A DNA stretch of 64,000 nt from the NCBI GenBank assembly GCA_026416955.1, contig JAOAEE010000036.1, positions 24,455 to 88,454 of the forward strand, read 5' to 3'. The position numbers and the translations under genes are program-made. The notes beneath the pieces are model-generated. The model saw only the letters and a program-made list of their open reading frames with translations. It did not search any database and was not told where the DNA came from. Each line of letters starts with the position of its first letter. Positions within the stretch are counted from its first letter, which is position 1. Below are positions 17,031 through 53,404 of the stretch, piece after piece. This DNA is from Ignavibacteria bacterium. Lineage in GTDB: Bacteria > Bacteroidota > Ignavibacteria > Kapaibacteriales > UBA2268.

Positions 17031-17038
17031 GGAAAGGA

Positions 17039-24911: not shown

Positions 24912-24989
24912 TTTTCCCTCCAAAAGGTTTATGATTAATTTTTGATGAAGGTTATCTTTAGATTAAGAATAAGCAAAAAAGATTAGGAA

Positions 24990-36417: not shown

Positions 36418-36442
36418 TTGTATTTGAGTGCGAAGGAGTAAT

Positions 36443-37009
36443 GTGAAAAATTTTGGCGAAAAAAAAGTAGAGGAAGAGAAACTTATTCGGGCAACCGAGG
36501 ATTTTCGTCGGGGAAGTGCCGAGGCATTTCATATTTTGTATTCGCACTATAGCCAAAAAGTGTATAGGTTTTGTTTAAGAATGCTGGGAAGTAAAGAAAA
36601 AGCAGAAGATGCCTTTCAAGAAACTTTCATCAAGGTATTTGAAAATGCAAAAAGTTTTCGGAGTGATAATTTTGGTCCTTGGCTATTTACAATTGCACGC
36701 CACGTTTGTTTGAATATGATAAGATTGGAGAAACCATACCAAGAAGTTAACGACAACTCTTTGAAATTATCATATGTTAATAATAGCGACTTTGGGTTGA
36801 AGGATTTTGTTCAACGCGCAATTATGCAATTACCGATTAGTTTGCGCGAAGCCTTGTTGTTGAGAGAATACGAGGAATATTCTTACGAGGAGATAGCCCG
36901 AATTCTGGATATTGGCATTTCCCTGGCAAAAATTCGAGTTCATCGTGCTAGACTTCTCTTAAAAAAATTATTGGAACCAATTGCAAAGGAATATTATGGG
37001 AATCGATAA
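36443..37009 (+). CDS. ECF-family RNA polymerase sigma factor
   Basis: Region 2 (YRFCLRMLGSKEKAEDAFQETFIKVF) and region 4 (LREALLLREYEEYSYEEIARIL). GTG at 36443 lies 4 nt after AAGGAG. The longest ORF starts at 36428. Confidence 0.88.
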   Translation: MKNFGEKKVEEEKLIRATEDFRRGSAEAFHILYSHYSQKVYRFCLRMLGSKEKAEDAFQETFIKVFENAKSFRSDNFGPWLFTIARHVCLNMIRLEKPYQEVNDNSLKLSYVNNSDFGLKDFVQRAIMQLPISLREALLLREYEEYSYEEIARILDIGISLAKIRVHRARLLLKKLLEPIAKEYYGNR

Positions 37010-38354
37010 GTTCATTAATGATTATCTTGATGGTACGCTTACTCCCGAAGATGATAACAAGTTTCGGGAATTGCTCGAAAATGATATAGAAGCCCAAGAG
37101 GAATTCGATTTGATGTTGTCGCTCAATTCGATACTTAAAAATGATGCCGAAAGTATCCAAGTTCCCAAAAGTTTAGAAGAGAAGGTCGAGCAAAGATTAC
37201 TTGCTACCTATTTGAGTATGGTAGCAACCAAACCAAGTCGAAAAGGAAGAAAAATTGCTTTTGCGCTTGCTTCGTTCTTTTTCCTATTCTTAATTAGTAT
37301 TTATTATATAAATGAGGGAAATTTACCTCACAACAACACATATTTTATTTCGGAAATTGTTAAACAGCAAGATATATTGAACCAACAAATCCCAATTGCG
37401 GAAGAGCAATCAATGCCAAATGATAGTAAAATTAATCCTGCTTATTCCCTTGCCCTTTCTAATCTGTCGAACCAATCAGCTACCAAGACAGAAATTTCAG
37501 CAATTAGTCGATACGAAGGAGTATCGAAAAATGAACTTTTCCAACATAATGTTGTTACGATATCGAAGGGATTGTTTGTAGAAGATGGTTTCAAATACGA
37601 CAGTAAAGTAGAAAAAGATAGAAATTTGGTTTTTCTACCAAAGGAAAAGGGAAATGTTTTGAGTATACATTCTGCTCAACTTTCTTTGGATTATCAAAAT
37701 GTTAACAAATTTGGATATCATCCAAATTATTTTAACGACTTACCAGCAAAAGGAATTTCGTTAACTGCATTCTCTTCTTTACCTTTAAGGGAATATGGAT
37801 ACAATCCTCAAAATTTGAAGTCATATTCAAGTTTTTCTCAAAGTGTTGGTTATCAAATTTCCGACAACTTTCGTTTGGGGTTAGAATTCGGTTATTTTGA
37901 CTTCGATTACACCCAAAACACAACAATCCTTGTTCCAGCAATACAACCCTATGCACCAGAAAGAAAAATTTATGATAAATATATCAAAAAAGAAAAGAAT
38001 GAAACAGTTGTTCTAACAAACGGAGAAGATAATTCCTATCCAAAATATGTAGAAGTAACTGTACCTATCGATAGAAAATATCAACATTATTGGGGTAGCC
38101 TATTTGTCGATTATGAATACCCATTAAATAAATTTCTATCGATAGTAGGTCGTATGAATGTTGGAGCAACAAGCGATGGATTTCTTGGAGGCGTTGTAGT
38201 TTATACAGAATTCCAACCCTTTAATGGCTTAACCTTAAACTTTGGATTAGAGAATAAAACTTATTGGAGCGCATTCCCTTCGGAAACATCTACTTTGAAA
38301 AGCGTGGTTGGTTTGGTTTATGGTTTAAGTTTGAAATTTAATCTTGGGAAATAA
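36996..38354 (+). CDS. Anti-sigma factor: N-terminal anti-sigma domain, one TM, C-terminal beta-barrel-like domain
   Basis: FINDYLDGTLTPEDDNKFRELLE. TM IAFALASFFFLFLISIYYI. The C-terminal ~170 aa has an alternating strand pattern (LGLEFGYFDFDY...GLVYGLSLKFNL). Overlaps the sigma gene by 14 nt. Confidence 0.65.
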   Translation: MGIDKFINDYLDGTLTPEDDNKFRELLENDIEAQEEFDLMLSLNSILKNDAESIQVPKSLEEKVEQRLLATYLSMVATKPSRKGRKIAFALASFFFLFLISIYYINEGNLPHNNTYFISEIVKQQDILNQQIPIAEEQSMPNDSKINPAYSLALSNLSNQSATKTEISAISRYEGVSKNELFQHNVVTISKGLFVEDGFKYDSKVEKDRNLVFLPKEKGNVLSIHSAQLSLDYQNVNKFGYHPNYFNDLPAKGISLTAFSSLPLREYGYNPQNLKSYSSFSQSVGYQISDNFRLGLEFGYFDFDYTQNTTILVPAIQPYAPERKIYDKYIKKEKNETVVLTNGEDNSYPKYVEVTVPIDRKYQHYWGSLFVDYEYPLNKFLSIVGRMNVGATSDGFLGGVVVYTEFQPFNGLTLNFGLENKTYWSAFPSETSTLKSVVGLVYGLSLKFNLGK

Positions 38355-38436: not shown

Positions 38437-40368
38437 ATGAGAAAGTCTTTACACATTCTCATTATTTTATTTTTCTTAGCACAAAATCCTGCAATTTTTG
38501 CTATCGAGCAAATTAATACTACGATTGCCTCGCCCAAAAGTTTCAAAGGGGTGGAGTTAGTTCCGGAAATACCTAATTATTTCTTTAAGTCGCCAGTAGA
38601 TAAGCCACTGTCAACAATAAACTTCCAAATCTTGGACTCCTTAGCAAATGCATATTCATATTTTAGCGAGTCTCAGCAACCGTTTGTATACGTTCCCAAA
38701 ATTAGACAACTTATAACTATCAAAAGGGGATACTGGGATATTGACAAGTATCCAGAATATACTGGCGACGACACGAAGAATAATCTTTTTATTAGATATT
38801 CTACGGATTGGGGCAAAAGTTGGTCGAATCCAATACTTGTCTACAAAGTACCAAGTGGGACACAATATGCAACTTGGCGTGCCCGTTACCCAAGTGTTTA
38901 TGCTTTCGATTACGAGGGAGATATTGCTTATGTTTACACTGCACCTTGTACAGATGGAAGTGGCTGGGTTGGTTTTGTAAATGGGTTATACTATCAAAAT
39001 AATTTCTTTCAATCGTTTTCAAAGTCTTTTACTTGGAAAGATGGAAATAGATATAACTGGGGCGGCACAGATTCTCGTATTGTTGGGGGAATGGACGGAA
39101 GCGACCCCTATGCAATTGCTGTTGGAACAATAATGATTGAAGGAGGCTTACCACTTACACATACGAGCCATTTAGGTTACCGACGTACAACAGATTTCGA
39201 TAAATGGAACGAAGTTATACCTCCTCAATGGGAAGCAAGTAAGTATAAAACTCCTGTTTCACAAAATGATAGTGTAAGGTCCTCTTTGATTGCTGGTTTC
39301 AAATTTGCCGATGATGGTTATATTTATATGGCAGCCTATGCAAATTTTGCAAACCTCACTTTAAATAGATTTTTCTTTGGTGTTTCTAAATCCACTGACC
39401 TTGGAAAAACTTGGAGCGATTTCGAATTCCCACCCGAGAATTTATTCGACTCATATTTACAGGAATATGGTCTAAATACTTCGTTGATTACCTGGGGGCA
39501 ACCACAATTTGTTCCATTGGGAAACGATAACTACACATTTCTTGTAAATATTAATGAAGATACTACCCAAACTTTCCGTCTTTGGGAAAATGCTCTTCAT
39601 CAACTGGTTGAAGTTTATAAACAAAATGGTGTTTGGGGTGTTCGAAAGGTCTCCGATTTGACTGGTTATGTTCTTGCTTATGTTGCACCAACTTCTTCAA
39701 ATCAACTTGGAGACGAAGCACAACTTGTTCGAACAGTTGATGGTTTAGCTCTTGTTGCAAAGTGGACTGATTTCGTTGATGTTGTGGTTAACGATACAGT
39801 TTATCCACGAGCAACGAACGATATTTTCGTTTCTGTGAGACGAATCAATAGCCCCGGGTGGTCGAAAGTCAAAAATATCACTGAAAGCTTTGATTATGAC
39901 AGAATTACTTGGTTGCCCGATATGGTTCCAAGTAATCTAAGAGATATTCCAATTTTGAAACTTGCTTCTATTCCAATAGAAGGTCAAACCGCGGCAGAAG
40001 CTCGACTTCGACAACGAATGCTCGATACTGTTCCACAATACCTTTTGGTTGGTTTCTTCGATGCAGATGATGTTTTGAATGTTGAAGAAGAAATCTATCA
40101 AAATCCAGAGATTACAAACCTTAAAGTTTACCCGAACCCTATGAGCGAAATTGGCTCTATTGAATTTGTTACAAGTTCACCCATACGTTTGACTATAGAT
40201 TTATACGATGTTTTTGGGAAAAAAGTTATGAATATTTTCGATGGGAATACTTTTGCTGGGGTTCAAGGAGTTACGTTCAAGACAAATAACCTTGCATCTG
40301 GCGTTTACAATGTTGTTGTAGAGTATAATGGTATTAAAAAAGTAATGCAGATAAATATACTGAAGTAA
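38437..40368 (+). CDS. Secreted BNR/Asp-box repeat protein (sialidase-like beta-propeller) with a T9SS C-terminal sorting domain
   Basis: Asp-boxes STDWGKSW and STDLGKTW. CTD KVYPNPMSEIGSIEF...GVYNVVVEYNGIKKVMQINILK. GAGGTG SD. Confidence 0.7.
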   Translation: MRKSLHILIILFFLAQNPAIFAIEQINTTIASPKSFKGVELVPEIPNYFFKSPVDKPLSTINFQILDSLANAYSYFSESQQPFVYVPKIRQLITIKRGYWDIDKYPEYTGDDTKNNLFIRYSTDWGKSWSNPILVYKVPSGTQYATWRARYPSVYAFDYEGDIAYVYTAPCTDGSGWVGFVNGLYYQNNFFQSFSKSFTWKDGNRYNWGGTDSRIVGGMDGSDPYAIAVGTIMIEGGLPLTHTSHLGYRRTTDFDKWNEVIPPQWEASKYKTPVSQNDSVRSSLIAGFKFADDGYIYMAAYANFANLTLNRFFFGVSKSTDLGKTWSDFEFPPENLFDSYLQEYGLNTSLITWGQPQFVPLGNDNYTFLVNINEDTTQTFRLWENALHQLVEVYKQNGVWGVRKVSDLTGYVLAYVAPTSSNQLGDEAQLVRTVDGLALVAKWTDFVDVVVNDTVYPRATNDIFVSVRRINSPGWSKVKNITESFDYDRITWLPDMVPSNLRDIPILKLASIPIEGQTAAEARLRQRMLDTVPQYLLVGFFDADDVLNVEEEIYQNPEITNLKVYPNPMSEIGSIEFVTSSPIRLTIDLYDVFGKKVMNIFDGNTFAGVQGVTFKTNNLASGVYNVVVEYNGIKKVMQINILK

Positions 40369-40388: not shown

Positions 40389-43300
40389 ATGAGGAAGACA
40401 TTATCCTACTTATTGTTGCTATGTATTAGTGTTTTGCTTCCTATATCGTTGGAAGCAAGCAATTATGGTACCCTTAAAGGTAAAGTTGTCGACCAAGACG
40501 GGAACCCAGTTGTGGGTGCTTCCGTTCGTATTCTTGGAACTCGTCTTGGTGGTGTTGTCAAAGCCGATGGTAAATTTATCGTTGTAAGTATACCAGCGGG
40601 AACATACAAAGTTCGTATCACTGCCGTTGGATATGCACCTTTTGAAGCAGAAGTTAGAATTTCTGCCGACGATGAGACCGAAATTAATGTTAGACTTAAA
40701 GAAGAAGGCAAGGTGACAGAAGAGGTTGTCGTTGTTGGGGAAAAACTTGTTTCGCACAAGGACATTGGCGTCAAGCGTCAATTTGAAAACCAACAACTTA
40801 CATCTATTGCTCGCGAGGGTTTGCAAGCAATAATAGGATTAAGTGCTGGCGTTTTCAATGCTGGAGGTGGTTGGATAATACGTGGGAGCCGAACCAACGA
40901 AAGCCAGATAAGGATTGATGGTATAGACGTTAGCGACAAGTTCACTGGTGGCTTTGGAATTGTTGGAGCTACTTATTATCCGATGGTAAGTGCATTTGCA
41001 ACCGAAGAAGTACAAGTTTTGACTGGTGGCTTTTCTGCCGAATATGGTAACGTTTTGGGTGGTTTTGTTAATACTACTTTGAAGACTGGTAGAACCGACC
41101 GATACGAAGGATATATTCGTTGGAGAACAGATATTCCTGCCTTGTTTGGTCGCCAACCTCACGATTTGAAACTCATTCGCGAAGGCGACCGATATAAAGC
41201 AATCGATTGGGGAGAAGGCAGAAAATTGCAAGGTACCAAAGAGCATACTTTTGAATTTGGTATTGGTGGACCAATACCTTTATGGGATAAAGCCACTTTC
41301 TTCATTGCTGGGAATTACTTTTACGAAAAATATCGTTCTGCAAGTTACGATATTTACGACCCAGTTCATATCAACAACTTAGGCAAGGTAGACCAAAATA
41401 ATCTTGGGCAGATTCCCAACAATCAATCTTGGAAGAAAAGCGTACAAGCGAAATTGAAGTTCCCAATCACACAAGATATCGATTTAATTCTATTTGGGAA
41501 CTTTGGGATGACTAACCTTGAAACTCTCGATTGGTCTTGGCTCTATGCTATCGAACCCGGTTCAATACCCGGATTGCCTTCTTATGGTGTAGAAGAAAGA
41601 AAAGCCAAGTCCCCTGTTTATAATCAATTTGCAAAGAGTGGGTACGTTCAGATTCAACATAGATTAGGTTCAAATAGTTTTTACGAGATAAAAATTTCGA
41701 ATACATCGAACAATAGCGATGCTTCGCGAAGGAAAACGTTCGACGACCCCAATTTCTTTACTGGATTTGAAGTATGGTACCCACAAGATGATTTTGCAGT
41801 AACAATTGGTAATTTGGAGCCCGGAAAAGATAAAATATTAGACCAATACACACCTGTTACCCAAATTAAGAATTCAAAGGATGGCTTTATCAAAATGGAT
41901 ATGCCTATTGTTAACCCACTTACTGGTTACATCGAAGGAAGTTCCAGTACTCAACACGCACAAAATGCCTATGGTTTGACTGGAATTTTCGATTTACACG
42001 GTAATGAAAGGACATTTGAATTTCGACGAAGCAATTATTGGCAAGTTGATGGAAATTACACACTTGCTGTTGAAGGTGAGTTCAGTCATATGTTCAAAAC
42101 TGGTTTCGAAGTTCAATTCTATCAACTTCGCCGACATATGAATAGTTTGCCTTGGGATGCCAATCCTTTCTTTGATGTTTACACAGACGAGTGGGGTGGT
42201 AATCTTTATGCCGACAATAAAAGTGTTTATGATAAAACAAGTAAACCATATAAACCTATCACAGGTGGATTATATATACAAGACCAAATTACCTACAAGG
42301 GCTTGATTATTACTCCCGGTTTGCGTTTTGATTTCTATATCCCTAATTCAGATTATCGTACCGTGGTAGAATATTTTGTTCCAATTACTTCGGACACAGG
42401 CTTTGCAAAAGCAACTACCAAAACACAAATCAGCCCGAGAATAAATGTAACTTATCCAATTACCGACCGTTCCAATATATCGATTTCCTACGGTGTTCTG
42501 TTCCAAATGCCACCAATGCAATATCTTTACGATGCTTTTGCTGTCGACCAATTGCGCGGCAACTCAATTCTTGGAAACCCCAATATGAAACCACAAAAAT
42601 CGAATATGTATCAAGTAACTTACAACAATCAACTTACTGATGATTTTGCTCTTGATATAGCTGCTTATTACAAGGACAATTATAACCAAGTTGGTTTGGT
42701 TTATGTTGCTGCTGTCCCCACTCCATATTATATGTATACAGTTTCGGAATATGGAAGTGCTCGAGGTATTGAATTTACCTTAAGAAAACGGCCAACTAAC
42801 CATATACAATTAAACCTAAATTACAATTTATCCTATGCTACAACAACTGGTTCATCCCCTGGGTCGAACTATTTGGTAGCAGTTGACCCATTCACTGGGA
42901 AACAGGCCTTCCCATTGGCTGAATTCCCCTTTTCTGCCGACAGAACCCACAGAGTGAATGCAATCATCGACTTTATTTGGGGTTACAAGCAAGGACCTTC
43001 CATTGCGGGTATTTATCCCTTGGAAAATACAGTTATAAATTTGACAGGTTTCTTCCAAACTGGAACTCCATATACAAGATTGGATAGGGCGGGAAATGCA
43101 ATCGGAGAGTTTAATGCCGAAAGGCAACCTTCGATTTGGAATGCTAATATGAGGATTCAAAAAGGATTTTTCTTGCGTGATTGGTTTGGCGACCAAGCTG
43201 GTAATTCTCGGTTGGAGTTCTTTATTGATGTAAACAATATTTTCAATCTTACAAGTGTTGCCGGCGTGTTTGCTCGAACTGGAGACCCAATTGATGACGG

Positions 43301-43571
43301 AGTAAACTTCTATCGTCCAGAAACTGATTTCAGCGCTGTAGTTTATTATCGAGAAGCTGATTATGCCCGTGCTGAATCATTTTCTACCGACCAGTATACA
43401 ATCTACGGAGATAGATTTTATAATATTAATGCCGATTTCGATAGAAATGGTATGGTTACACGAACAGAAAAATTCCAAGCCTTTACAAAGTATTTGGAAG
43501 ATGTTCGTAGGTTCCGGGGGAACTTCCTTGCTCCTCGAACTGTTTACGCTGGTATAATGTTTAGGTTTTAA
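40389..43571 (+). CDS. Large TonB-dependent-receptor-like outer-membrane barrel with a CarboxypepD_reg domain (1060 aa)
   Basis: GTLKGKVVDQDGNPVVGASVRI...AGTYKVRITAVGY. Plug-like IIRGSRTNESQIRIDGIDV. C-terminal GIMFRF. Confidence 0.8.
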   Translation: MRKTLSYLLLLCISVLLPISLEASNYGTLKGKVVDQDGNPVVGASVRILGTRLGGVVKADGKFIVVSIPAGTYKVRITAVGYAPFEAEVRISADDETEINVRLKEEGKVTEEVVVVGEKLVSHKDIGVKRQFENQQLTSIAREGLQAIIGLSAGVFNAGGGWIIRGSRTNESQIRIDGIDVSDKFTGGFGIVGATYYPMVSAFATEEVQVLTGGFSAEYGNVLGGFVNTTLKTGRTDRYEGYIRWRTDIPALFGRQPHDLKLIREGDRYKAIDWGEGRKLQGTKEHTFEFGIGGPIPLWDKATFFIAGNYFYEKYRSASYDIYDPVHINNLGKVDQNNLGQIPNNQSWKKSVQAKLKFPITQDIDLILFGNFGMTNLETLDWSWLYAIEPGSIPGLPSYGVEERKAKSPVYNQFAKSGYVQIQHRLGSNSFYEIKISNTSNNSDASRRKTFDDPNFFTGFEVWYPQDDFAVTIGNLEPGKDKILDQYTPVTQIKNSKDGFIKMDMPIVNPLTGYIEGSSSTQHAQNAYGLTGIFDLHGNERTFEFRRSNYWQVDGNYTLAVEGEFSHMFKTGFEVQFYQLRRHMNSLPWDANPFFDVYTDEWGGNLYADNKSVYDKTSKPYKPITGGLYIQDQITYKGLIITPGLRFDFYIPNSDYRTVVEYFVPITSDTGFAKATTKTQISPRINVTYPITDRSNISISYGVLFQMPPMQYLYDAFAVDQLRGNSILGNPNMKPQKSNMYQVTYNNQLTDDFALDIAAYYKDNYNQVGLVYVAAVPTPYYMYTVSEYGSARGIEFTLRKRPTNHIQLNLNYNLSYATTTGSSPGSNYLVAVDPFTGKQAFPLAEFPFSADRTHRVNAIIDFIWGYKQGPSIAGIYPLENTVINLTGFFQTGTPYTRLDRAGNAIGEFNAERQPSIWNANMRIQKGFFLRDWFGDQAGNSRLEFFIDVNNIFNLTSVAGVFARTGDPIDDGVNFYRPETDFSAVVYYREADYARAESFSTDQYTIYGDRFYNINADFDRNGMVTRTEKFQAFTKYLEDVRRFRGNFLAPRTVYAGIMFRF

Positions 43572-43603
43572 TTCGAAAATGTGTAATAATATTGGGTGAA
43601 TAT

Positions 43604-46600
43604 ATGAAAAGAATGAAACTAGGACTTTTTACATTGGTAGCGCTAATTGCTTGTACTACGTTGGTTTTTTCGCTACCAAAAGATTATGAAAAAAGCAAAA
43701 AAAGCGGCGATGAACCGCAAAGAACCTACACACAACTTTTCGACCTTCAACAAAATAGCGTTAGCAATATTCAATTTTACACCACCAACTATGGAATTTT
43801 TGGTTTAAATGTTGCTCAAAATCGTGGTGGTGGATACTGGCCTCGTGGGTCGAACAATCAGTATATTTTTGGTGGGGGCCTTTGGGTTGGTGCGATCAAA
43901 CCCAGACCCGATGGTAAACCCAAAAAATATGTCGAGGTTACTTACAACCCAAATAATGGTCGTTCTTGGATGGTTCCGGGCCGCATTACTGATGGCGACA
44001 GCAAAGATGTGTCCGACATTAAAAAGTATCGAACTTATTTCTCGACTGATTTCCGTAAAGGTGATGGTACACCTTTAAATGCTGACCACGGACCCAGTTG
44101 GCCCATTTGGGATACAAGCCCAAATGATACTTTGAAATATAATCGTTACTATGGTTATTACGTTGATGATGTAAACCAAAGAAATACTACAGCTTTTCCA
44201 AAAGGTCCTGCCTTTATTTCTGGCGAGGATATATTCTGCACATATAAAGATACTGATGTAAACGAATTCGATGGCGGGGCTGGGCTGCGAAAGAGCCAAG
44301 GATATCCACTTCGCCTTCAGTTCGAGCAAATGATTTATTCTTGGGGCTTTGGCGATTACAAAGATTTTATCTTTATCAAATACGATGTTATTAATTTCAG
44401 CAAGGATACACTTCGAGAAGTTTGGCTTGGTTCGGTGATGGATATCGATATCGCACGAGCACCCAACCTTGTTAACGGTGCACGAAACGATAGAGCCAGA
44501 TTTTACGAAGAAGATACTACTTTGAACCTTGGTGTTCAATGGACAAATACAGACCAAGGCGAAAAAGGCTTTGGATTCGGATATTTAGGGTTCGACTTTT
44601 TGGAGAGCCCCGCCGTTGTTAAATCGGAAAGAAGTGTTGTAACATATGAACTGCAAGGTGCTGATACTTTATTCCGTATTGTTGAATATATGTGCTACGA
44701 TAAAAAATTCTTTAAAATTGAAATTAGAGATTCAGTAGGAAATGTTATTGGTTACAAAGATTCAGTTGCTTGTTTGAAGGAGGAAGTTGTAAAAAGATGG
44801 ACTTCATTGCATAGGAAGACCGACACGGGAATTGTTGTTATCAATAACATTGAATATGATATTACTGGTTTTATTCGAAAGGATAGAAGAGTTTTCGAAA
44901 CAAGTGAACAACTTGGGTTGAAAACATTCCGTAATTGGCATATTGATGATGATAAAAATGATGACGACGAACGATACAATTTTATGTCTTCTGGTATTCG
45001 CGATGGCGACTTTGGACCTGGCGACCGACGGTTGATGATGGCAACTGGTCCGTTCAATATGGCTCCCGGAGATACTGCTCGTTTGGTTGTTGCTTTAATT
45101 TGCGCTCAAACAGCAGTGCGAGAAGATGCTGACGGAAGCACGGAAGACCTTGCAGAAATGATACGCAAAGATAAATTTGCTCAACAAGTTTACGACGACA
45201 ATTTCCGTGCTCCTTCGCCACCGGAGCGAGCCAATTTTGTTACTTGGACACCTTTGCACAATGGCTTTATTCTCAAATGGGATAGTACCGCCGAAATTTC
45301 GAAGGACTTTTACGAAAAAGGTATGGATTTCCTTGGATATAAACTTTATCGTGCCAGAAGAACCGACCTCGACACTTTCGATATCGACAATATCTCTCCA
45401 AGTTTGCAATATCCTTCTGGAAAAGGACCATTTGGATGGAAACAAATTGCTCAATGGGAACTTCCAACCCCATTCTACAAGTCTGTTTATAGAGCGGGTG
45501 GGAGCAATCTTACAACAATGCCTTTTATTGATTCATTGAGAATTGTTGGTCCATACCTTGAAAATCGAGGGGGACAAATAGTTATCGATTCGTTTGCTAT
45601 ACGAGTTTTGCGTGTGGGTCGGGGTATTAAACTTAATCCAACCAATCGATGGGTAATTCAAAATATTACCCAATCCAGTGGTAACATTTTCCCAGTGATT
45701 TGCGGAGTTGATACTGCTTATTTCTCCAAGCCTTGGGGTCCGTTCTGGCAATCAAAAATTAATATGGCTGCAAGAGAACTTCCAATTTATTACGACCCGT
45801 TCAACGCAATTAATCCAAGAAGACATTATCTACTTGATAGTGTGATGCTTGGAGTAGTTAAGTTGAACCGCTTGTTCCTTACCTATAACCCACTACTTTG
45901 GAGAAAGGAAACAATCAATGTTAATCCAAGCGATACTGCGACCTTGCCAGAAAGAACCGGACCAAATCTTGATACGATATACTTGAAGAAAACTTACCGT
46001 CGTGCAGTAGTAAATGGAACAAGTGTTCTTTTGATAGACCGAATGGTGCCAATGAATATCCAAATGGTTTTGCGCGATTCTTTGCATATACAACAAGCAT
46101 TGGACTCAATTTATAAATATATTCAACAAGGATTGGCAAAGGTCGAATTTCCAAACTTTGAACAATCGGACGAGGCGCTAAATAAAGTTGTCGTTCCATA
46201 TATGGACAGTATTACCAACCACAGGACATTTATCGACTTAGGGGACGACAATAAAGATATGATTGTAAGTTACAACGATAACCCCACTAAGACAGAAAAG
46301 ATAATTAACAATGTAGATTATTACTATAGACTACTTTCCTACGACGAAGGAGATTATATACAACAAACACCACAAAAATTGAATGATGCTTCTCCCGGAT
46401 TACCAAATATGCTTAATGTCTTTGCTCGTTCTGCCCCTGTTGGAAAACCAATTGAATTCAAAGTAACCTATGTAGATACTGCAAGAATTGGTGGTTTGTA
46501 TAACTTCAAACTATTTGCTGTTGACTACGACCGAGCTGTCCAACTTTTTGCTGGACACGAGCTTGAGTTGGAATTCAATCCATATTGGGAACTTGAACAA

Positions 46601-48259
46601 ATTACACTTCCAGGTAGGTCTACACCCTTGCGTTTTGGAATGTATTGGCGTAGAATGACTTTGAAAGATTTAACTACAAATACTTTGCTTTTCAATTCAC
46701 TAACTTTACTCGAAGAAAGCCCCGGAATGCTTAGATATTCCGGCTCCCCAACAGAAAATGCTGCCTCGTACATCTTTAGCGATACTGCAATTGTCGATAC
46801 AATAACAGGGAAACGAAATGAATTTGGTCTACCTTTCAACAATGGTGTAATTACACGCTCTGGGAAAATTACAACTGGGGACTTTACAATTCCAGGATAC
46901 TATTACAGTTGGGGCTTTATGACGAACTACCCAAGTCCGGGTCCTGCATTTGGTGTTCTAGGATTCAGTTTCGACTATACAATACAACAGTACGGTGGAA
47001 TTCTTCGACCAGATTCATCTTCAATTCGTATGGAACCCGACAAGACACCAATCAATATTATAACAGACCCATCGAAAATCTTTACAACACAACAAGTCGA
47101 CTTTATGACGCTCCGACAAGAATTCCTCGGTTACACAGCCGATAGGCAACCTGTTTACCAGGGTTACGGACAACCGATTTATGGTAGTTTCAATAATGGT
47201 CCCGGAGATTTCGAAGTTACATTTATGCCTGGTGGAGAAGAGACAATGGAATTGGTATGGGGTCCCGCTGGCGATAGAAAGAGAAAAACATTTAAAGTTA
47301 AATACCTTACATTAAAAGTTCGTAATCTTCTGACTTACAAGCGTCCTTCTGAAAATGGTAAAGACTCTGTTGTAGTCTCTTATCCTCTTGAACTAGAACA
47401 TATGGTGATTGACACCATCCCCGGAGTAAATCAATATCCGGTTCCGACCAATTTGCGTTCGAGAAATAATGAGTTTATAAATAAGTTCAATCTAAGTGCC
47501 TATGGTTGGGTTAACGGAAGAAGAAATAATTCTGCAATCAAGATGCGCGAGCAGCAAGCCAACCCAGCTTGGAATACTGGATTAAGTTCGTTCAGCACTT
47601 ATATTGGCACACAAGGGCGATATTACTTGTCCGCTGTTAGCGAAGATGGCAAGGATACTGTTGATTTCACCCACGTGTTAATAATTGGAGGCTGCCAGTT
47701 TGCTTTGGATTATGCAAACAAAGGTAGAAGATTTGGAAATGCTGAATGGGAATATATTCCTACCAATCAATACCAATATGGGCAAGACTTCAAAGAAGGC
47801 GACAAAATCGTTTTGAAAATCCGTGGTGGTGCATTTGGATTACCTTTGCCTGGTGCGAAAGTTCGATTTAAAATTTCCGACTTCAAACCTGAGAACGAAA
47901 ACTATACCGACGAAATGCTCGAAAAGTTCAAGGTTGTTCCAAATCCATACTATATTTCACACCAAGGGCAAAAAACGCCCTACGATGCAAAGATTTACTT
48001 TACAAAGCTTCCACCGCGATGCACAATCGAGATTTATACACTTGCAGGAGATTTAGTGCGAACGATTGAGCACAACGAAACAAGTGCAGATGGTCCAGAC
48101 AAAAACTCTGTCGAAATTTGGGACTTGCTTTCGAAGAACGGTTTAAGAGTTACTAGCCAAACATTCGTTGCGGTTTTGAAGACCCCAAATGGAGCACAAG
48201 CAGTTCAAAAATTCTCTGTCGTTGTTGGTGGATTTAGGTTAATTCAAAGTCAACAATAA
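43604..48259 (+). CDS. Giant secreted protein of unknown function (1551 aa) with a divergent T9SS/FlgD-Ig-like C-terminal domain
   Basis: ATG at 43604 gives the signal peptide MKRMKLGLFTLVALIACTTLVFS. FN3-like FRAPSPPERANF...WDSTAE...FLGYKLYRA. C-terminus VVPNPYY...IEIYTLAGDLVRTI...IWDLLSKNG. Confidence 0.8.
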   Translation: MKRMKLGLFTLVALIACTTLVFSLPKDYEKSKKSGDEPQRTYTQLFDLQQNSVSNIQFYTTNYGIFGLNVAQNRGGGYWPRGSNNQYIFGGGLWVGAIKPRPDGKPKKYVEVTYNPNNGRSWMVPGRITDGDSKDVSDIKKYRTYFSTDFRKGDGTPLNADHGPSWPIWDTSPNDTLKYNRYYGYYVDDVNQRNTTAFPKGPAFISGEDIFCTYKDTDVNEFDGGAGLRKSQGYPLRLQFEQMIYSWGFGDYKDFIFIKYDVINFSKDTLREVWLGSVMDIDIARAPNLVNGARNDRARFYEEDTTLNLGVQWTNTDQGEKGFGFGYLGFDFLESPAVVKSERSVVTYELQGADTLFRIVEYMCYDKKFFKIEIRDSVGNVIGYKDSVACLKEEVVKRWTSLHRKTDTGIVVINNIEYDITGFIRKDRRVFETSEQLGLKTFRNWHIDDDKNDDDERYNFMSSGIRDGDFGPGDRRLMMATGPFNMAPGDTARLVVALICAQTAVREDADGSTEDLAEMIRKDKFAQQVYDDNFRAPSPPERANFVTWTPLHNGFILKWDSTAEISKDFYEKGMDFLGYKLYRARRTDLDTFDIDNISPSLQYPSGKGPFGWKQIAQWELPTPFYKSVYRAGGSNLTTMPFIDSLRIVGPYLENRGGQIVIDSFAIRVLRVGRGIKLNPTNRWVIQNITQSSGNIFPVICGVDTAYFSKPWGPFWQSKINMAARELPIYYDPFNAINPRRHYLLDSVMLGVVKLNRLFLTYNPLLWRKETINVNPSDTATLPERTGPNLDTIYLKKTYRRAVVNGTSVLLIDRMVPMNIQMVLRDSLHIQQALDSIYKYIQQGLAKVEFPNFEQSDEALNKVVVPYMDSITNHRTFIDLGDDNKDMIVSYNDNPTKTEKIINNVDYYYRLLSYDEGDYIQQTPQKLNDASPGLPNMLNVFARSAPVGKPIEFKVTYVDTARIGGLYNFKLFAVDYDRAVQLFAGHELELEFNPYWELEQITLPGRSTPLRFGMYWRRMTLKDLTTNTLLFNSLTLLEESPGMLRYSGSPTENAASYIFSDTAIVDTITGKRNEFGLPFNNGVITRSGKITTGDFTIPGYYYSWGFMTNYPSPGPAFGVLGFSFDYTIQQYGGILRPDSSSIRMEPDKTPINIITDPSKIFTTQQVDFMTLRQEFLGYTADRQPVYQGYGQPIYGSFNNGPGDFEVTFMPGGEETMELVWGPAGDRKRKTFKVKYLTLKVRNLLTYKRPSENGKDSVVVSYPLELEHMVIDTIPGVNQYPVPTNLRSRNNEFINKFNLSAYGWVNGRRNNSAIKMREQQANPAWNTGLSSFSTYIGTQGRYYLSAVSEDGKDTVDFTHVLIIGGCQFALDYANKGRRFGNAEWEYIPTNQYQYGQDFKEGDKIVLKIRGGAFGLPLPGAKVRFKISDFKPENENYTDEMLEKFKVVPNPYYISHQGQKTPYDAKIYFTKLPPRCTIEIYTLAGDLVRTIEHNETSADGPDKNSVEIWDLLSKNGLRVTSQTFVAVLKTPNGAQAVQKFSVVVGGFRLIQSQQ

Positions 48260-49418: not shown

Positions 49419-49449
49419 AGCAAGGGGTTGAACCCCTTGCTCTTTTTTT
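49419..49449 (+). terminator. Rho-independent terminator after the PorV-like gene
   Basis: AGCAAGGGG-ttgaa-CCCCTTGCT forms a 9-bp GC-rich stem followed by CTTTTTTT. Confidence 0.75.
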
Positions 49450-50959
49450 GGTACAAATTTTGTATTTTTCTTTTGTTTTTGTGACACTTTATATGGGAAT
49501 TTCTTATTTAGTAAATTTCAAACCATTATTTAAACTCGTTGGTTTTGTTGGTATTTTTTGGGTGATTTTTCTTTACGAATCCTATCCATATACAATACCG
49601 ATTTTTGTCGACTATTGTATTTTCAATCGAAACGAAAAGGAAAATGTCGTAGAAATTTACTATGGATTTTTGGATAATCAGTTATCTTACCATAAGCAAG
49701 GGAAAAAATTTGTTGCTGAATTATCTATGGAAATAAAATTTTTTGCCAATGACACTCTTTACGATTCATACAATTGGACAGTTTACTATGAAAAAGACAA
49801 AATTGATACCACCAACGAATTACAGAACTTATTGGTTGGTCAGAAAAATTTTGTAATCGATAAAAATTCCAAGATTAAGTTCCAACTTGATTGTTTTGAT
49901 ATTCGGGATTCATCAAATTATTATCGTAGGACATTCGAAGTTGAAAATCTCTTGTTCCCTCCGAATGAATGTTCGATAAGTGACATTCAATTTGCACAAT
50001 TTTTCGAGCACAGCGATACTACCAATTTTTTTTGGCAAAAAGAGTTTCTTAAAGGAAAATTTTATGTTATTCCAAATCCTACCCTTGAGGTTGTTGGAAC
50101 GAACCCTCGCCTTTATTCTTACTTTGAGTATTATTTAGGCTCTAATATTTCTATTAAACAAGTTAGAATTGAATATAGAATTTTCAACAATCTGAAAGAA
50201 GAAGTTTTATTTACTTTTAAGAATGCTAAAGTTGCTGGTAAATCCCAATTCGATATTAATGGTTTTGCGCTTGATGCTTTAAGTTCGGGGGTGTATTTCT
50301 TTGAGGTAACTTTATTGGATGCTAATGGCAAGTTTCTTACTCGCTCGAAGAAAAAGAAATTCTATTTATTGAATCCCGAGCTACCCCCAGAGCCTGTGCG
50401 TCGGTATACCGAACCAGAATTGTTCGAAAAAAGCATTTTTGCTACGTTGTCCGACAAAGAAGCCGATTTGGAGTTCGAAAAAGCTAAGTATATTGCTTCG
50501 GACTACGAGAAGGAATTGTTTAAAAGTTTAACAACAACAGAAGCAAAGCGCCGTTTCCTTTTTCAATTTTGGAGGCGTAGGAACCCCGATACTACTTTGA
50601 TATATAACCAAGCATACGAAAATTTTGTTCAGAAAGTAAATTATGCAAATAAATTCTTTTCGGTGGGCAATCAAGTAGAGGGGTGGAAAACCGATAGAGG
50701 AAGAGTATTAATTCAATATGGTGAACCAACTTCCCGAGAGTTCTACCCACGAGAACCAAATAAGCGTAGCTATGAAATTTGGTTCTATAGTGAATTGCAA
50801 GGTGGGGCGTTCTTTTATTTTGTCGACCTGGTTGGCAATGGTAATTTCATTCTTGTACACTCGACTGCAATGAATGAGATTTATAATGAAAATTGGTATA
50901 CCGATTTCGTAACTGGAACGAATTCCGAACGAATTCAAAAAATGTTTCTGAACAGATGA
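49448..50959 (+). CDS. GWxTD domain-containing protein. Start uncertain.
   Basis: Motif GWKTDRGRVLIQYGEP near the C-terminus. The TTG at 49448 lies in the terminator U-tract. The GTG at 49481 or ATG at 49493 are alternatives. Confidence 0.75.
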   Translation: MVQILYFSFVFVTLYMGISYLVNFKPLFKLVGFVGIFWVIFLYESYPYTIPIFVDYCIFNRNEKENVVEIYYGFLDNQLSYHKQGKKFVAELSMEIKFFANDTLYDSYNWTVYYEKDKIDTTNELQNLLVGQKNFVIDKNSKIKFQLDCFDIRDSSNYYRRTFEVENLLFPPNECSISDIQFAQFFEHSDTTNFFWQKEFLKGKFYVIPNPTLEVVGTNPRLYSYFEYYLGSNISIKQVRIEYRIFNNLKEEVLFTFKNAKVAGKSQFDINGFALDALSSGVYFFEVTLLDANGKFLTRSKKKKFYLLNPELPPEPVRRYTEPELFEKSIFATLSDKEADLEFEKAKYIASDYEKELFKSLTTTEAKRRFLFQFWRRRNPDTTLIYNQAYENFVQKVNYANKFFSVGNQVEGWKTDRGRVLIQYGEPTSREFYPREPNKRSYEIWFYSELQGGAFFYFVDLVGNGNFILVHSTAMNEIYNENWYTDFVTGTNSERIQKMFLNR

Positions 50960-51846
50960 AGCGTTTAAGGTTTTATCTTGAAACTTGTTTTGTTTACTTA
51001 ATAGGATGGTTTTCAAGTCTCTTTTCTCCTTCGAAAAGACTTACTTTTGGTAAAATCTTGGGTAGAATCTTATATTTTTTGCTTCCGCAAAGGGTCAAAA
51101 TTGCTCGCCAGAACTTGCTTTTTGCATATCCTACAAAAGACCCAAAATGGGTAAATGATATTACGAAAAAAGTTTTCGAGAATTTAGGTATTGTCTTTGC
51201 TGAATTTCTTGCACTTCCTTGGTTCGACGAGAATGTAATAAAAGATTATATACGATTCGAAAATGTCGAATTAATAAGGGAAAAATACAACGAAGGCAAA
51301 GGTGTACTTCTTCTTTCTGGTCATTACGGAAATTGGGAATTGCTTGCTTATTCAGTGAAAGTTTATCTGGGGCTGTCAGTATTAATCATAGTCAAACCCC
51401 TTTCGAATTATATTTTAGACAGAGTAATTAACCAATTTCGTACTCAAGGTGGTAACCAAGTTGTTTCGATGTACGAGTCTGCATTGAAAGTTGTAAGGAC
51501 ATTGAAAGAGAAAGGTATTGTGGCTTTGCTTGCAGACCAAAGTGCAACAAAAGATAAAGACATATATGTAAATTTTTTCGGGCGGAAAGCAGCAACTTTC
51601 GATTCGCCTGCTCATTTTGCACTAAAGTATAAAGTACCAGTTATCATTGGTTTTGCCAAAAGAGAAAGTTATTATTACAAAGTTAGATTAGAAGAAATAG
51701 ACCATTCCGATTTAAATTTCGATAAAGAAGGAATTTATGAATTGACAAGAAGATACATTGAAAAACTCGAAAATGTAATTAACGAAAAACCAGAACTTTG
51801 GCTTTGGACACACCGCCGTTGGAAACACAATCAAGAAAATTCTTAG
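50956..51846 (+). CDS. Lipid A biosynthesis (Kdo2-lipid IVA) acyltransferase, LpxL/HtrB family
   Basis: LLLSGHYGNWELLA (H-x4-E/D acyltransferase motif). Family-typical C-terminus PELWLWTHRRWK. ATGA start/stop overlap with the GWxTD gene. Confidence 0.85.
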   Translation: MKRLRFYLETCFVYLIGWFSSLFSPSKRLTFGKILGRILYFLLPQRVKIARQNLLFAYPTKDPKWVNDITKKVFENLGIVFAEFLALPWFDENVIKDYIRFENVELIREKYNEGKGVLLLSGHYGNWELLAYSVKVYLGLSVLIIVKPLSNYILDRVINQFRTQGGNQVVSMYESALKVVRTLKEKGIVALLADQSATKDKDIYVNFFGRKAATFDSPAHFALKYKVPVIIGFAKRESYYYKVRLEEIDHSDLNFDKEGIYELTRRYIEKLENVINEKPELWLWTHRRWKHNQENS

Positions 51847-51934
51847 CAAATGGTTCCCTCGCCTAAAATCCTTTTAGTTTTTTCAAATAATTAAAGAGTT
51901 AATTTATTATATTGTAATAATTTTGGAGAAAAAA

Positions 51935-53404
51935 ATGAGAAAATTTTTTCTTATTGTTGTATCTTTTCTTGCTATTTGCACTCTTGGTTATAGTACAGAA
52001 TGGAGATATCTTGAATTCCCTGTTCGAATTTCGAGCAACCTTGCAGTTTGTGGCAATCGGGTGTTTGTTACCGCATTCGATACTACAATTCTTGGATTTT
52101 GGGTTGAAAGAAGTGGTAAAAAAGATACTTTTGAATTCCGAGCATTAACAAAATCGGATTTTTATCGTAAGTTAGTTAATTTCGATTCTACCTACGACCA
52201 ACGATTACGATTGTTCCAAGGATTTCTTGGCGGGACACTTGAATGTACTTCAAATGGTGATTTGTGGCTTGTTGGTTTGTGTGCATTCAAAAACTATCTT
52301 GGGCAAGATTCTTTCCTTTATAAGTTGTATGTTTTTTCAAAGGATAATTTTTTTGGAGTAACCCCAATTTTGTTAACTCCAAATTTAGATACTATTTCAC
52401 CATTGAGAAGTACTAGAATTCTTGGTAGTGGGGGAACAAGTCTTCCCTGGTTGTTCGAAACTAAGCAAGAGGGCGAAAGGACAATGTTTCTTCTTGCATA
52501 TGGAATAGAGACTGCCGATGGATTTGCCTTTGTTGTAAAGGATACTATCTCGTTTCTTAGTTCGCTCCGAGTGTATTTCAATGGGGCAGATGTAGATGGT
52601 TATGGAAATTTGTCCTTTATTACCAACGATTTGCTGAAAACTATTAGCACGAAAAAGACAATTCGTGAATTAAGGATAGACCAAATGTTTCCACAATCAG
52701 GGCTTCTTTGTGGTTTGAAAATTGATAAGAGAAGTGGGAATATCTATATTTTCGATAGGGCTTTCAATCTTATTAAGTTCGATGGTACTTCTTGGACTTT
52801 TCGCAAAATCCCTACTGTCGATACATTTTCTTTGGATGCAAGAAAAACAGCTCTTGTTGCAATCGATAGTTTGGGCAATCTTTGGGTAACAATGAACACA
52901 GGTTTTAAAAATATTTATAAAATTTCTAAAACTGGTGAAGTCGCATCGATACCTTTGCCGAAGAATTTGACTGGTACACTTGGTAGCGTTTTTCAAATTG
53001 ATAAGGATGGGATATTATACTTTGTTGGCAATAAATTAGAAGTTGATAGCACTATTAAAGCAGTTTTGTACTATCTCGATACAAAAGAATTTCCTAATTC
53101 TGTGGAAAAATGGGACAATTTGAATGGAACCCCCGAAATCGTTTTCAACTTGGTAAGCAACATCCTTTATATCGATTTTTACTCAGAAAATCCTAGTTCG
53201 AATTCTATGGTTGTAGATATTTATAATTTACTTGGGGAAAAAGTAGGAAGTTCTCCTATCAACATAACTTTAATTAGTAACGAGAATAATCGATTTCGTT
53301 ACCGAACTGCTTTGGATATTTCTAATCTTTTTAATGGTGTATATCTTGTATCGATTTGGGATGGTTCTGCTTACAAAATACAAAAATTTATAATTAACAA
53401 ATAA
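51935..53404 (+). CDS. Secreted hypothetical protein (beta-propeller-like repeats) with a T9SS C-terminal sorting domain
   Basis: ATG at 51935 after GGAG. Signal peptide. CTD ILYIDFYSENP...VVDIYNLLGEKV...GVYLVSIWDGSAYKIQKFIINK. Confidence 0.7.
   Translation: MRKFFLIVVSFLAICTLGYSTEWRYLEFPVRISSNLAVCGNRVFVTAFDTTILGFWVERSGKKDTFEFRALTKSDFYRKLVNFDSTYDQRLRLFQGFLGGTLECTSNGDLWLVGLCAFKNYLGQDSFLYKLYVFSKDNFFGVTPILLTPNLDTISPLRSTRILGSGGTSLPWLFETKQEGERTMFLLAYGIETADGFAFVVKDTISFLSSLRVYFNGADVDGYGNLSFITNDLLKTISTKKTIRELRIDQMFPQSGLLCGLKIDKRSGNIYIFDRAFNLIKFDGTSWTFRKIPTVDTFSLDARKTALVAIDSLGNLWVTMNTGFKNIYKISKTGEVASIPLPKNLTGTLGSVFQIDKDGILYFVGNKLEVDSTIKAVLYYLDTKEFPNSVEKWDNLNGTPEIVFNLVSNILYIDFYSENPSSNSMVVDIYNLLGEKVGSSPINITLISNENNRFRYRTALDISNLFNGVYLVSIWDGSAYKIQKFIINK

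Follow-up and report, generated by a model that had tools for sequence, protein, structure and literature searches.

A large secreted protein family of Ignavibacteria with a non-canonical T9SS-like C-terminal domain, encoded between a TonB-dependent receptor and a PorV/PorQ-family barrel

Introduction

PorU, PorZ, and PorA are type IX secretion system (T9SS) substrates whose C-terminal domain (CTD) is not removed. PorV holds PorU on the cell and PorQ holds PorZ, and the CTDs of PorU and PorZ are longer than those of cargo proteins and end 1-3 residues later (PMC5562754, PMC10947112, PMC11285876). In Porphyromonas gingivalis, PorU is PG0026 and PorV is PG27. FadL/PorV-like barrels also act as platforms for surface proteins in the β-barrel assembly machinery (BAM) complex of Bacteroidota (PMC12578637). 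Here, we investigated a 64-kb stretch of DNA from an Ignavibacteria bacterium (GenBank assembly GCA_026416955.1, contig JAOAEE010000036.1, positions 24,455 to 88,454 of the forward strand), referred to below as the window. Our subject is a 1551-residue secreted protein encoded at 43604..48259 on the + strand of the window, which we call BIG. It ends in a T9SS-like CTD that differs from the ordinary type A signal, and its gene lies between those of a TonB-dependent receptor and a PorV/PorQ-family barrel. Residue numbers refer to BIG unless another protein is named.

The PorZ-PorQ and PorU-PorV pairs of P. gingivalis resemble BIG in that a large secreted surface protein carries an Ig-like C-terminal CTD longer than cargo CTDs. 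By profile and fold alike, PorZ and PorU have the CTDs closest to that of BIG, and BIG is directly upstream of a PorV/PorQ-family gene, as porU (PG0026) adjoins porV (PG27). The body of BIG, however, is unrelated, with neither the β-propellers of PorZ nor a C25 peptidase domain, and its conserved tail is about 10 residues long compared with the 1-3 extra residues of PorZ and PorU. Unlike these two proteins, BIG is coupled to a TonB-dependent transporter, and we infer that its CTD is retained. A further parallel is BamG-BamH, where a FadL/PorV-like 14-strand barrel, with a conserved terminal peptide wedged into it, is the platform of a large extracellular protein, and a paralogous pair is encoded in one operon (PMC12578637), comparable to the adjacency of BIG and its barrel. 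BamH, however, is a lipoprotein anchored by its N-terminus, with no T9SS CTD and no sequence relation to BIG.

Large surface proteins with a non-type-A (type B) CTD, such as SprB of Flavobacterium johnsoniae with its barrel SprF, are reportedly encoded with a dedicated barrel directly downstream (Kulkarni et al.; mentioned in PMC10947112). BIG likewise is large, has a non-type-A CTD, and has a barrel encoded immediately downstream, but that barrel belongs to the PorV/PorQ (FadL-like) family rather than to PorP/SprF, and the BIG CTD matches neither type B model. Type A cargo (TIGR04183 / PF18962) shares with BIG a signal peptide and a C-terminal seven-strand sandwich that starts from a PNP motif and keeps the same strand order, and paralogues of the BIG N-domain are true type A cargo. 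Compared with type A, the BIG CTD replaces the G-x-Y motif by an invariant S-Q, carries 12 inserted residues after strand 1, gains a tail, and is far more conserved. SusC/SusD utilisomes resemble the BIG locus in combining a CarboxypepD_reg TonB-dependent transporter, neighbouring genes for surface proteins, an extracytoplasmic function (ECF) sigma/anti-sigma pair, and partners with carbohydrate-type folds. No SusD is found alongside the BIG-linked transporter, which scores 63 bits against the SusC model (cut-off 368). The partners of SusC/SusD are lipoproteins, whereas those in the BIG locus would reach the surface by T9SS, and SusC/SusD loci are variable, whereas the BIG locus is near-universal and highly conserved.

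Results

BIG belongs to a large unnamed family

The BIG open reading frame is uninterrupted from 43592 to 48259, and the ATG at 43604 gives a 1551-residue product beginning MKRMKLGLF. See Table 1 for the coordinates of all features. A first-pass annotation, made from the sequence alone, had called this the largest gene of the window, and it is indeed the longest open reading frame. The pieces quoted in that annotation were all found: a signal peptide, RLMMATGPFNMAPGDTARLVV at residues 476-496, FRAPSPPERANF, WDSTAE, and FLGYKLYRA within residues 534-584, and VVPNPYY, IEIYTLAGDLVRTI, IWDLLSKNG, and the terminal VVGGFRLIQSQQ in the C-terminal region. A basic-plus-hydrophobic N-terminal leader is present in all 36 aligned homologues; we placed the cleavage site by eye. 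The leader contains L-I-A-C at residues 18-21, a possible lipobox. Cys21 is not conserved among the homologues, and we therefore rule out that BIG is a lipoprotein. Lacking both this conserved cysteine and any Pfam or NCBIfam match to SusD/RagB, BIG is not SusD-like.

Searches of Pfam-A and NCBIfam with the whole of BIG returned no family at E ≤ 1. Likewise, no usable match was obtained when all PDB sequences were searched with BIG (phmmer), the family profile, or the CTD profile. Most of the protein is therefore without a curated family, as had been noted, and no characterised adhesin or glycosidase match of the kind that would have spoken against the first-pass annotation appeared. The same annotation had also called BIG an orphan, and this label did not survive. 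A search of a 5.8-billion-protein collection yielded at least 442 homologues, and the best 120 are all full-length (about 1470-1840 residues) at 42-91% identity to BIG. In a scan with one genome per species, 200 genome stretches encode a relative. Together with 2160 cluster representatives that contain the N-domain (described below), these counts rule out orphan status, and the N-terminal third is common to hundreds of type A cargo proteins. Judged from its sequence relatives, BIG is a member of a large, conserved, single-architecture, unnamed family.

Full-length homologues at 37-91% identity occur in the genomes of about 200 species of Kapaibacteria, Ignavibacteria, and Chlorobiota. The best 80 of the 200 stretches all come from metagenome-assembled genomes (MAGs) labelled Kapaibacteria, Ignavibacteria, Chlorobiota, or "Bacteroidota," apart from a few that are evidently mislabelled, and labels of these kinds also mark the more divergent long forms. 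The closest relatives, at 90-91% identity, include Ca. Kapaibacterium sp. Ch6, whose complete genome (CP058732) has the module, and the DNA of the window therefore comes from a Kapaibacterium-like organism. In the source records the homologues are named "hypothetical," and their precomputed Pfam domains are none, bar one insertion. Many MAGs with a BIG-type module (L005, L008, L009, L014-L016, and others) are titled "uncultured Hyphomicrobiales bacterium," and further ones bear the names Desulfobulbaceae, Armatimonadota, or Chloroflexota; mislabelling or mis-binning is the probable cause.

The C-terminal domain is T9SS-like, non-canonical, and highly conserved

Conservation across 36 sequences is 0.4-0.75 through the middle of BIG and rises to 0.65-0.81 in the final 110 residues, of which the terminal tail is part. 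The predicted CTD strands span residues 1443-1539 and form an Ig-like sandwich of seven strands with which the Sec-exported protein ends, as expected of a T9SS CTD. At about 100 residues, the domain is comparable with the longer CTDs of PorU and PorZ. A Foldseek search with the C-terminal model gave, for the predicted sandwich, a local match to the crystal structure of PorZ (5m11) with a probability of 1.00 over 132 columns, and PorU was also listed.

We isolated the CTDs of 24 family members and scanned them against Pfam and NCBIfam. Twenty of the 24 match the last ~95 positions of NCBIfam T9SS_PorZ (NF052228), with a best E of 1.4e-6, and the window copy scores 15.5 bits (E 0.0044). The match is confined to these positions, so BIG is not a PorZ by this model. 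The C-terminal end of the PorU model (NF033707) is weakly matched by 8 of the 24, and the PorZ and PorU scores together indicate only which CTDs are nearest to that of BIG. None of the 24 passes the type A model Por_Secre_tail (PF18962) at 1e-3 (one reaches E 0.11), a single CTD matches TIGR04183 at E 0.045, and the window BIG CTD matches no type A model at E ≤ 10. Positive controls from the window and from among the N-domain paralogues pass. The type B models TIGR04131 and CHU_C (PF13585) match none of the 24 CTDs at E ≤ 10.

We then used hhalign to compare the BIG CTD with type A CTDs directly. Against the four CTD-like tails of the window the probability was 2.9%, but this four-sequence profile was too poor, and we therefore repeated the comparison with 68 type A CTDs. 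Here the strands align in order (43.6% probability, E 2.4e-4), and we therefore take the BIG CTD to be a divergent relative of the same fold. The BIG CTD profile found no sequence match among the solved T9SS CTDs in the PDB, whereas a method control, the type A CTD from the family of the neighbouring protein, did match them by sequence.

The last 100 residues of BIG are more conserved than the remainder (0.67 vs 0.55), while the type A CTD of a syntenic neighbour is less conserved than its body (0.43 vs 0.50). This pattern points to a stronger constraint on the BIG CTD than on a signal. A hidden Markov model of this special CTD matches 159 of 160 proteins of at least 1250 residues, the sole exception being annotated as partial, and none of 70 short forms of the N-domain family. 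Judging by these sequences, CTD type tracks protein architecture and gene context.

Past the last strand, the protein continues into the tail GGFRLIQSQQ, which follows the point where the PorZ model match stops. All 36 sequences have G1542 and R1545, and the tail has a predicted local distance difference test (pLDDT) score below 50 in the monomer model. The first-pass annotation had proposed a C-terminus that is T9SS-like without being ordinary type A, with an extra tail that four canonical CTDs elsewhere in the window lack. The scans agree with this on the CTD, which does not score as type A, and on the tail, which is real, conserved, and not present in the other CTD proteins of the window. 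Only two of the four supposed canonical CTDs stand, those at 38437-40368 and 51923-53404, both of which pass Por_Secre_tail. The protein at 60673-61965 (-) has a β-lactamase fold and scores 26.0 bits, under the cut-off of 27, and the one at 17027-17857 (+) has no Por_Secre_tail match at E ≤ 1e-3.

BIG lies between a TonB-dependent receptor and a PorV/PorQ-family barrel

Synteny was counted by tblastn of the window neighbours against the best 80 of the 200 loci. The one-strand order TonB-dependent receptor, BIG, PorV/PorQ-family barrel was found with the three genes present in 75, 80, and 78 of the 80 loci, respectively. Loci missing the receptor or the barrel gene are contigs that end there, and the order is invariant wherever the flanks suffice. 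In the window, the gap from the transporter gene to BIG is 32 nucleotides and that from BIG to the barrel gene is 61 nucleotides. No terminator-like site was found between the three genes, and a single strong one directly follows the barrel gene, its hairpin at 49419-49441.

The barrel scores 173 bits against NF033709 (cut-off 90), which places it in the PorV/PorQ family. The equivalog models give 97 bits for PorQ, 63 for PorV, and 62 for PorV2, short of the PorQ and PorV cut-offs of 220 and 250, respectively. The barrel is therefore a PorV/PorQ family member to which the models assign no subtype. In the PDB, it matches F. johnsoniae PorV (6h3i_F) at E 1.3e-7. No second PorV-family gene was seen in the window. 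A barrel gene also lies 3' of P0194, a 1019-residue relative that has the special CTD. The earlier suggestion of a distinct CTD subtype matched to the neighbouring barrel is strongly backed by this synteny, with a barrel 3' in 78/80 loci, and the two may also bind physically.

The transporter upstream has an EEVVVVG motif after its N-terminal domain, and its orthologue in L082, the locus of P0194, matches PF00593. Upstream of the transporter is a 643-residue BNR protein that is conserved in the module (40/80 loci, plus L082). Its orthologues carry Por_Secre_tail in 25 of 25 cases and BNR_2 in 18 of 25, and its profile gives Asp-box matches to sialidase-fold proteins. An ECF sigma/anti-sigma pair at 36428..38354 heads the conserved array. 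L082 keeps the four-gene core of type A protein, TonB-dependent receptor, long form, and PorV.

Downstream of the barrel gene are genes for a GWxTD-domain protein (49448-50959, +) and an LpxL-like lipid A acyltransferase (50893-51846, +), found in 57/80 and 56/80 loci. L082 has no copies of either, and a terminator-like hairpin lies between the module and both genes; therefore, we ruled them out as obligatory members of the module. Literature searches on GWxTD, and on Ignavibacteria/Kapabacteria with T9SS or PorV, returned nothing relevant.

The N-domain is shared with short type A cargo proteins

Conservation across the 36 sequences is 0.6-0.8 at residues 40-335 and 420-630. Between these blocks is a variable insertion at about residues 340-420, and the break that it causes lowers the BLASTP coverage of BIG homologues to 73%. 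In a long form of 1838 residues (P0078, L068 8447-13945), a run of Reg_prop repeats (two-component regulator propeller) is inserted exactly at this variable loop.

We used a profile of residues 38-645 to search exhaustively 1.84 billion cluster representatives. At E ≤ 1e-3 the profile detected 2160 proteins, of which 312 also reached E ≤ 1e-30. Among the proteins detected, short forms of about 510-600 residues align solely to the first ~425 positions, and 64 of 68 carry a Pfam Por_Secre_tail (type A) domain. A few proteins join the module to SBBP propeller repeats. The short forms (P0165-P0253; for example L081 8001-9593) consist of a ~430-residue N-domain in an unnamed family of ~540-residue T9SS type A cargo, which comprises hundreds of 50%-identity clusters and has no Pfam or NCBIfam model. 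One MAG has both kinds of protein, a long form beside a barrel in the module (L016) and a lone short type A paralogue among housekeeping genes (L081). No paralogue of the N-domain was found elsewhere in the window.

AlphaFold2 models of BIG were built from 49-sequence alignments. The model of residues 30-1000 is mostly beta, with a pLDDT of 85.1 and a predicted template modelling (pTM) score of 0.77. A Foldseek search of the PDB with the N-terminal part gave weak matches (E 1e-4 to 1e-3, TM ~0.2) to the N-terminal β-supersandwich domains of GH94, GH116, GH65, and GH15-like enzymes and to the P1 domain of YidC. A search of a viral structure library again gave a weak GH65-type sandwich match and nothing more. 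We take these matches as a hint of a galactose-mutarotase-like sandwich and not as family membership. No helical catalytic barrel is present in the mostly beta models of residues 30-1000 and 801-1551. With no (alpha/alpha)6 barrel predicted, weak matches to the sandwich only, and no sequence match, we rejected membership of BIG in the GH94, GH116, GH65, or GH15-like families.

The residues that are at least 90% conserved across short and long forms include R81, K99, R193, E208, D216, D280, D282, N295, D296, D474, and D515, along with many Trp, Tyr, Gly, and Pro. In alignments of 114 sequences, no invariant Cys or His was found outside the CTD, and the single near-invariant Cys of the family is a Val in the window BIG. 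This argues against a PorU-like cysteine peptidase, and a protease/sortase reading of BIG (C25-type, PorU NF033707) was therefore excluded. The lack of invariant Cys or His is compatible with a candidate carbohydrate-binding or carbohydrate-active site in the N-domain.

The middle region contains a split FN3-like domain

The FN3-like module named in the first-pass annotation is real, but it is not continuous in BIG. Its first half ends near residue 587 and its second half begins at residue 876, where D878, G880, D881, Y906, Y908, D914, and G916 are invariant. In a BLASTP alignment, the second half corresponds to residues 526-570 of P0194. In P0194, a half with the pattern PPP..W..GYRLYR and a half with IDYYY..DQGD are about 30 residues apart and form a contiguous domain. 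Therefore, the ~290 residues at 588-875 of BIG are an insertion inside the domain. Pfam fn3 (PF00041) does not match BIG; the motif pattern PSPP..W..GYKLYR ... YYYRL.SYDE.GD and the predicted strands fit a putative FN3 domain. The model of residues 801-1551 is mostly beta (pLDDT 80.3, pTM 0.72), and a Foldseek search with the C-terminal part returned generic Ig/FN3 arrays alone, except for the CTD.

The remainder of the window

The module sits in a run of about 26 kb (34906-60666) in which all genes are on the + strand, including those for a NAGPA-type phosphodiester glycosidase, PepT, and an OPT oligopeptide transporter. Beyond close relatives, synteny within this run is limited to the genes from the sigma factor through LpxL. 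No T9SS core genes (GldKLMN/SprA) are present within the window. On the - strand, the window also encodes a second, 749-residue CarboxypepD_reg plus TonB-dependent-receptor barrel in which no Plug domain was detected (22674-24923), and an 887-residue protein that joins a patatin-like phospholipase domain to POTRA and an Omp85/BamA-type barrel (7569-10232). A 626-residue protein at 62021-63901 (-) partially matches the PglX-type adenine methyltransferases of the bacteriophage exclusion (BREX) system (123 bits vs a cut-off of 500), and it may be a stand-alone or truncated defence methyltransferase.

Table 1 Features of BIG and of the neighbouring genes in the window
Feature	Position	Strand	Basis
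ECF sigma factor	36428-37009	+	Family hits, synteny 48/80
Anti-sigma-like protein	36981-38354	+	Family hits, synteny 47/80
BNR/Asp-box propeller-like protein, 643 aa, canonical type A CTD	38437..40368	+	Pfam, profile, synteny 40/80
TonB-dependent-receptor-like outer-membrane protein, 1060 aa, CarboxypepD_reg + Plug	40389..43571	+	Family hits, synteny 75/80
BIG gene, stop codon included	43604..48259	+	Open reading frame and full-length homologues
Sec signal peptide, ~residues 1-24, not a lipobox	43604..43675	+	Leader in 36/36 aligned homologues
N-domain, ~residues 41-530, conserved unnamed module, mostly beta	43724..45193	+	Conservation 0.6-0.8, model pLDDT 85, profile search
Variable insertion in N-domain, ~residues 340-420, predicted long beta-hairpins	44621..44863	+	Conservation 0.14-0.40
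FN3-like domain, first half, residues 534-587, FRAPSPPERANF..WDSTAE..FLGYKLYRARR	45203..45364	+	Sequence, predicted strands
Insertion inside FN3-like domain, ~residues 588-875, mixed alpha/beta	45365..46228	+	BLASTP vs P0194, models
FN3-like domain, second half, residues 876-930, FIDLGDDN..VDYYYRLLSYDEGD	46229..46393	+	Invariant residues, alignment to P0194
Long-form-specific region, ~residues 931-1425, predicted beta-sandwich domains	46394..47878	+	Model pLDDT 80
Non-canonical T9SS-like CTD, ~residues 1440-1541	47921..48226	+	Predicted 7-strand sandwich, PorZ/PorU profile ends
Conserved tail GGFRLIQSQQ past last CTD strand	48227..48256	+	G1542 and R1545 invariant
PorV/PorQ-family outer-membrane barrel, 345 aa	48321..49358	+	NF033709, PDB match, synteny 78/80
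Terminator-like hairpin, 10-bp stem, 6 GC pairs, T-run	about 49419..49451	+	Directly 3' of barrel gene

Discussion

We propose that BIG is exported by T9SS and stays permanently on the surface through a PorV-like barrel of its own, in a transporter-centred module that probably handles glycans, and we consider this proposal nearly, if not quite, probable. As we infer the pathway, Sec would export BIG by way of its signal peptide, and T9SS would then carry it to the surface. The CTD would be kept there rather than cleaved, unlike that of ordinary type A cargo. Together with the GGFRLI tail, which would act as an extra latch, it would dock permanently and non-covalently on the downstream co-transcribed barrel. 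The barrel would thereby anchor BIG to the outer membrane, as PorQ does with PorZ and PorV with PorU. BIG, the upstream TonB-dependent transporter, and the BNR-propeller T9SS protein may then form a capture-and-uptake station, most likely for a glycan, as a T9SS-anchored counterpart of the lipoprotein-based SusCD-type complexes. The N-domain, rich in invariant Asp, Glu, Trp, and Tyr, would be the ligand-binding or catalytic head.

Anchoring is suggested by the resemblance of the BIG CTD to the uncleaved, barrel-bound CTDs of PorZ and PorU. A retained, barrel-bound CTD would fit the high CTD conservation, the invariant adjacency of the barrel, and the ~100-residue length of the domain. The hints of a glycan are the weak supersandwich matches, the BNR/Asp-box partner, and the upstream ECF sigma/anti-sigma pair. 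Several points weigh against the proposal. That the CTD and tail dock on the barrel is read from gene context, and the adjoining barrel could be a general PorV shuttle rather than a dedicated anchor. The Foldseek match between the CTD and PorZ has an E-value of 4.5e-3, the PorZ and PorU profile matches are far under the family cut-offs (15.5 vs 260 bits for the window copy), and the supersandwich matches of the N-domain have a TM of ~0.2 and a root mean square deviation of ~18 Å. Furthermore, the near-universality and high conservation of the module in the clade fit a housekeeping role better than a nutrient-specific locus. Family scans found no STN signalling domain in the transporter and no FecR domain in the anti-sigma protein; therefore, classical cell-surface signalling is not indicated.

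The idea of a general shuttle leads to an alternative in which BIG travels as ordinary T9SS cargo, its CTD, no more than a divergent type A signal peculiar to the lineage, is cleaved after export, and the barrel is a general PorV shuttle that by chance lies near an abundant substrate. The hhalign result, with the CTD strands in the type A order (E 2.4e-4, 43.6% probability), speaks for this, as does the absence of a second PorV-family gene from the 64-kb window. The NCBIfam PorV and PorQ equivalogs were also built from other classes, and a true Ignavibacteria PorV might score low on them too. However, the same genomes have Pfam-detectable type A CTDs, on the N-domain paralogues and on the neighbouring BNR protein, and lineage drift therefore fails to account for the contrast. 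No part of BIG is better conserved than the CTD and tail, unlike a cleaved signal, and over identities of 37-91% the pairing with the barrel does not vary. We regard this alternative as unlikely, though it deserves to be taken seriously. A little further from what we would expect is that BIG is a component of the T9SS machine that, although not orthologous, fills the place of PorZ or PorU in the attachment complex and would, for example, bind a surface glycan or lipopolysaccharide and present it for cargo attachment, seated on a PorQ-like barrel in a porU-porV gene position. The closeness of its CTD to those of PorZ and PorU agrees with such a role, and the gene position recalls that of PorU (PG0026) and PorV (PG27) in P. 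gingivalis. The barrel does score higher on PorQ than on PorV (97 vs 63 bits), the family is apparently restricted to one clade where it is highly conserved and near-universal, and lipid A acyltransferase and GWxTD genes lie downstream in 56-57/80 loci. This likeness is nevertheless confined to the CTD, with no similarity in the body, and the C25-type sortase is excluded, there being no invariant Cys or His outside the CTD and a Val in the window BIG in place of the near-invariant Cys. Many ordinary type A cargo proteins have the N-domain as well, L082 has neither the GWxTD nor the LpxL gene, and the invariant partner is a TonB-dependent transporter, which belongs to no known T9SS.

We give little credence to a purely structural role, in which BIG would be an adhesin or a coat or S-layer-like protein that takes no part in uptake and the transporter would be no more than a conserved neighbour. 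Such a role would suit the C-terminal 900 residues, which are predicted as arrays of Ig/FN3-like sandwiches that match solely adhesin-like or macroglobulin-like arrays, and it would suit the hypervariable surface insertion. BIG does not, however, have the tandem repeats or length variation typical of adhesins; its identity is very high over class-level distances, many polar residues of the N-domain are invariant, and the order of transporter, BIG, and barrel is invariant with tight spacing. Least probable, in our judgement, is a T9SS-independent outer-membrane machine. The TonB-dependent-receptor-like barrel would here export or assemble BIG in an Oar-like manner, or BIG would form a dome on a FadL-like platform as in BamG-BamH. 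FadL/PorV-type barrels do carry surface proteins outside T9SS, and BamG2-BamH2 are encoded in one operon (PMC12578637). The trio of genes is invariant and near-universal in the clade, and the conserved terminal tail, disordered in the monomer model, is consistent with a latch into the barrel. However, the C-terminal domain of BIG has the fold and position of a T9SS CTD, a T9SS with numerous type A cargo proteins clearly operates in these genomes, and nothing links the transporter to export.

Returning to BIG as a barrel-anchored partner of the transporter, we note that the general kind is already known: surface proteins of the T9SS type are on record that have an outer-membrane barrel as a dedicated partner. 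In the libraries and literature that we searched, we found no description of the BIG family, the CTD subtype with its tail, the N-domain family, or the invariant link with a TonB-dependent transporter. A bolder extension, which we hold to be doubtful, is that Ignavibacteria/Kapaibacteria use a third class of T9SS sorting domain, a permanent anchor with a GGFRLI latch and dedicated PorV/PorQ-like barrels. A T9SS-anchored, TonB-dependent uptake machine would then replace the SusD and surface lipoproteins of Bacteroidia, and the head of BIG would represent a new ~490-residue carbohydrate-active or carbohydrate-binding family.

What decides whether a T9SS substrate is released, covalently attached, or permanently docked is an open question in the field, and the retained CTDs studied so far are those of a few machine components of one pathogen. 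The BIG family, with about 200 species, is a natural test set for CTD sorting. The same N-module carries a cleavable canonical CTD in the short forms and a distinct, conserved CTD with a tail in the long forms, and adjacency to a PorV-like barrel is limited to the long forms. This work also defines two sizeable protein families that have no Pfam or NCBIfam model. Finally, it describes a conserved outer-membrane module, consisting of a TonB-dependent transporter, two T9SS surface proteins, and a PorV-like barrel, in a clade with few cultured members.

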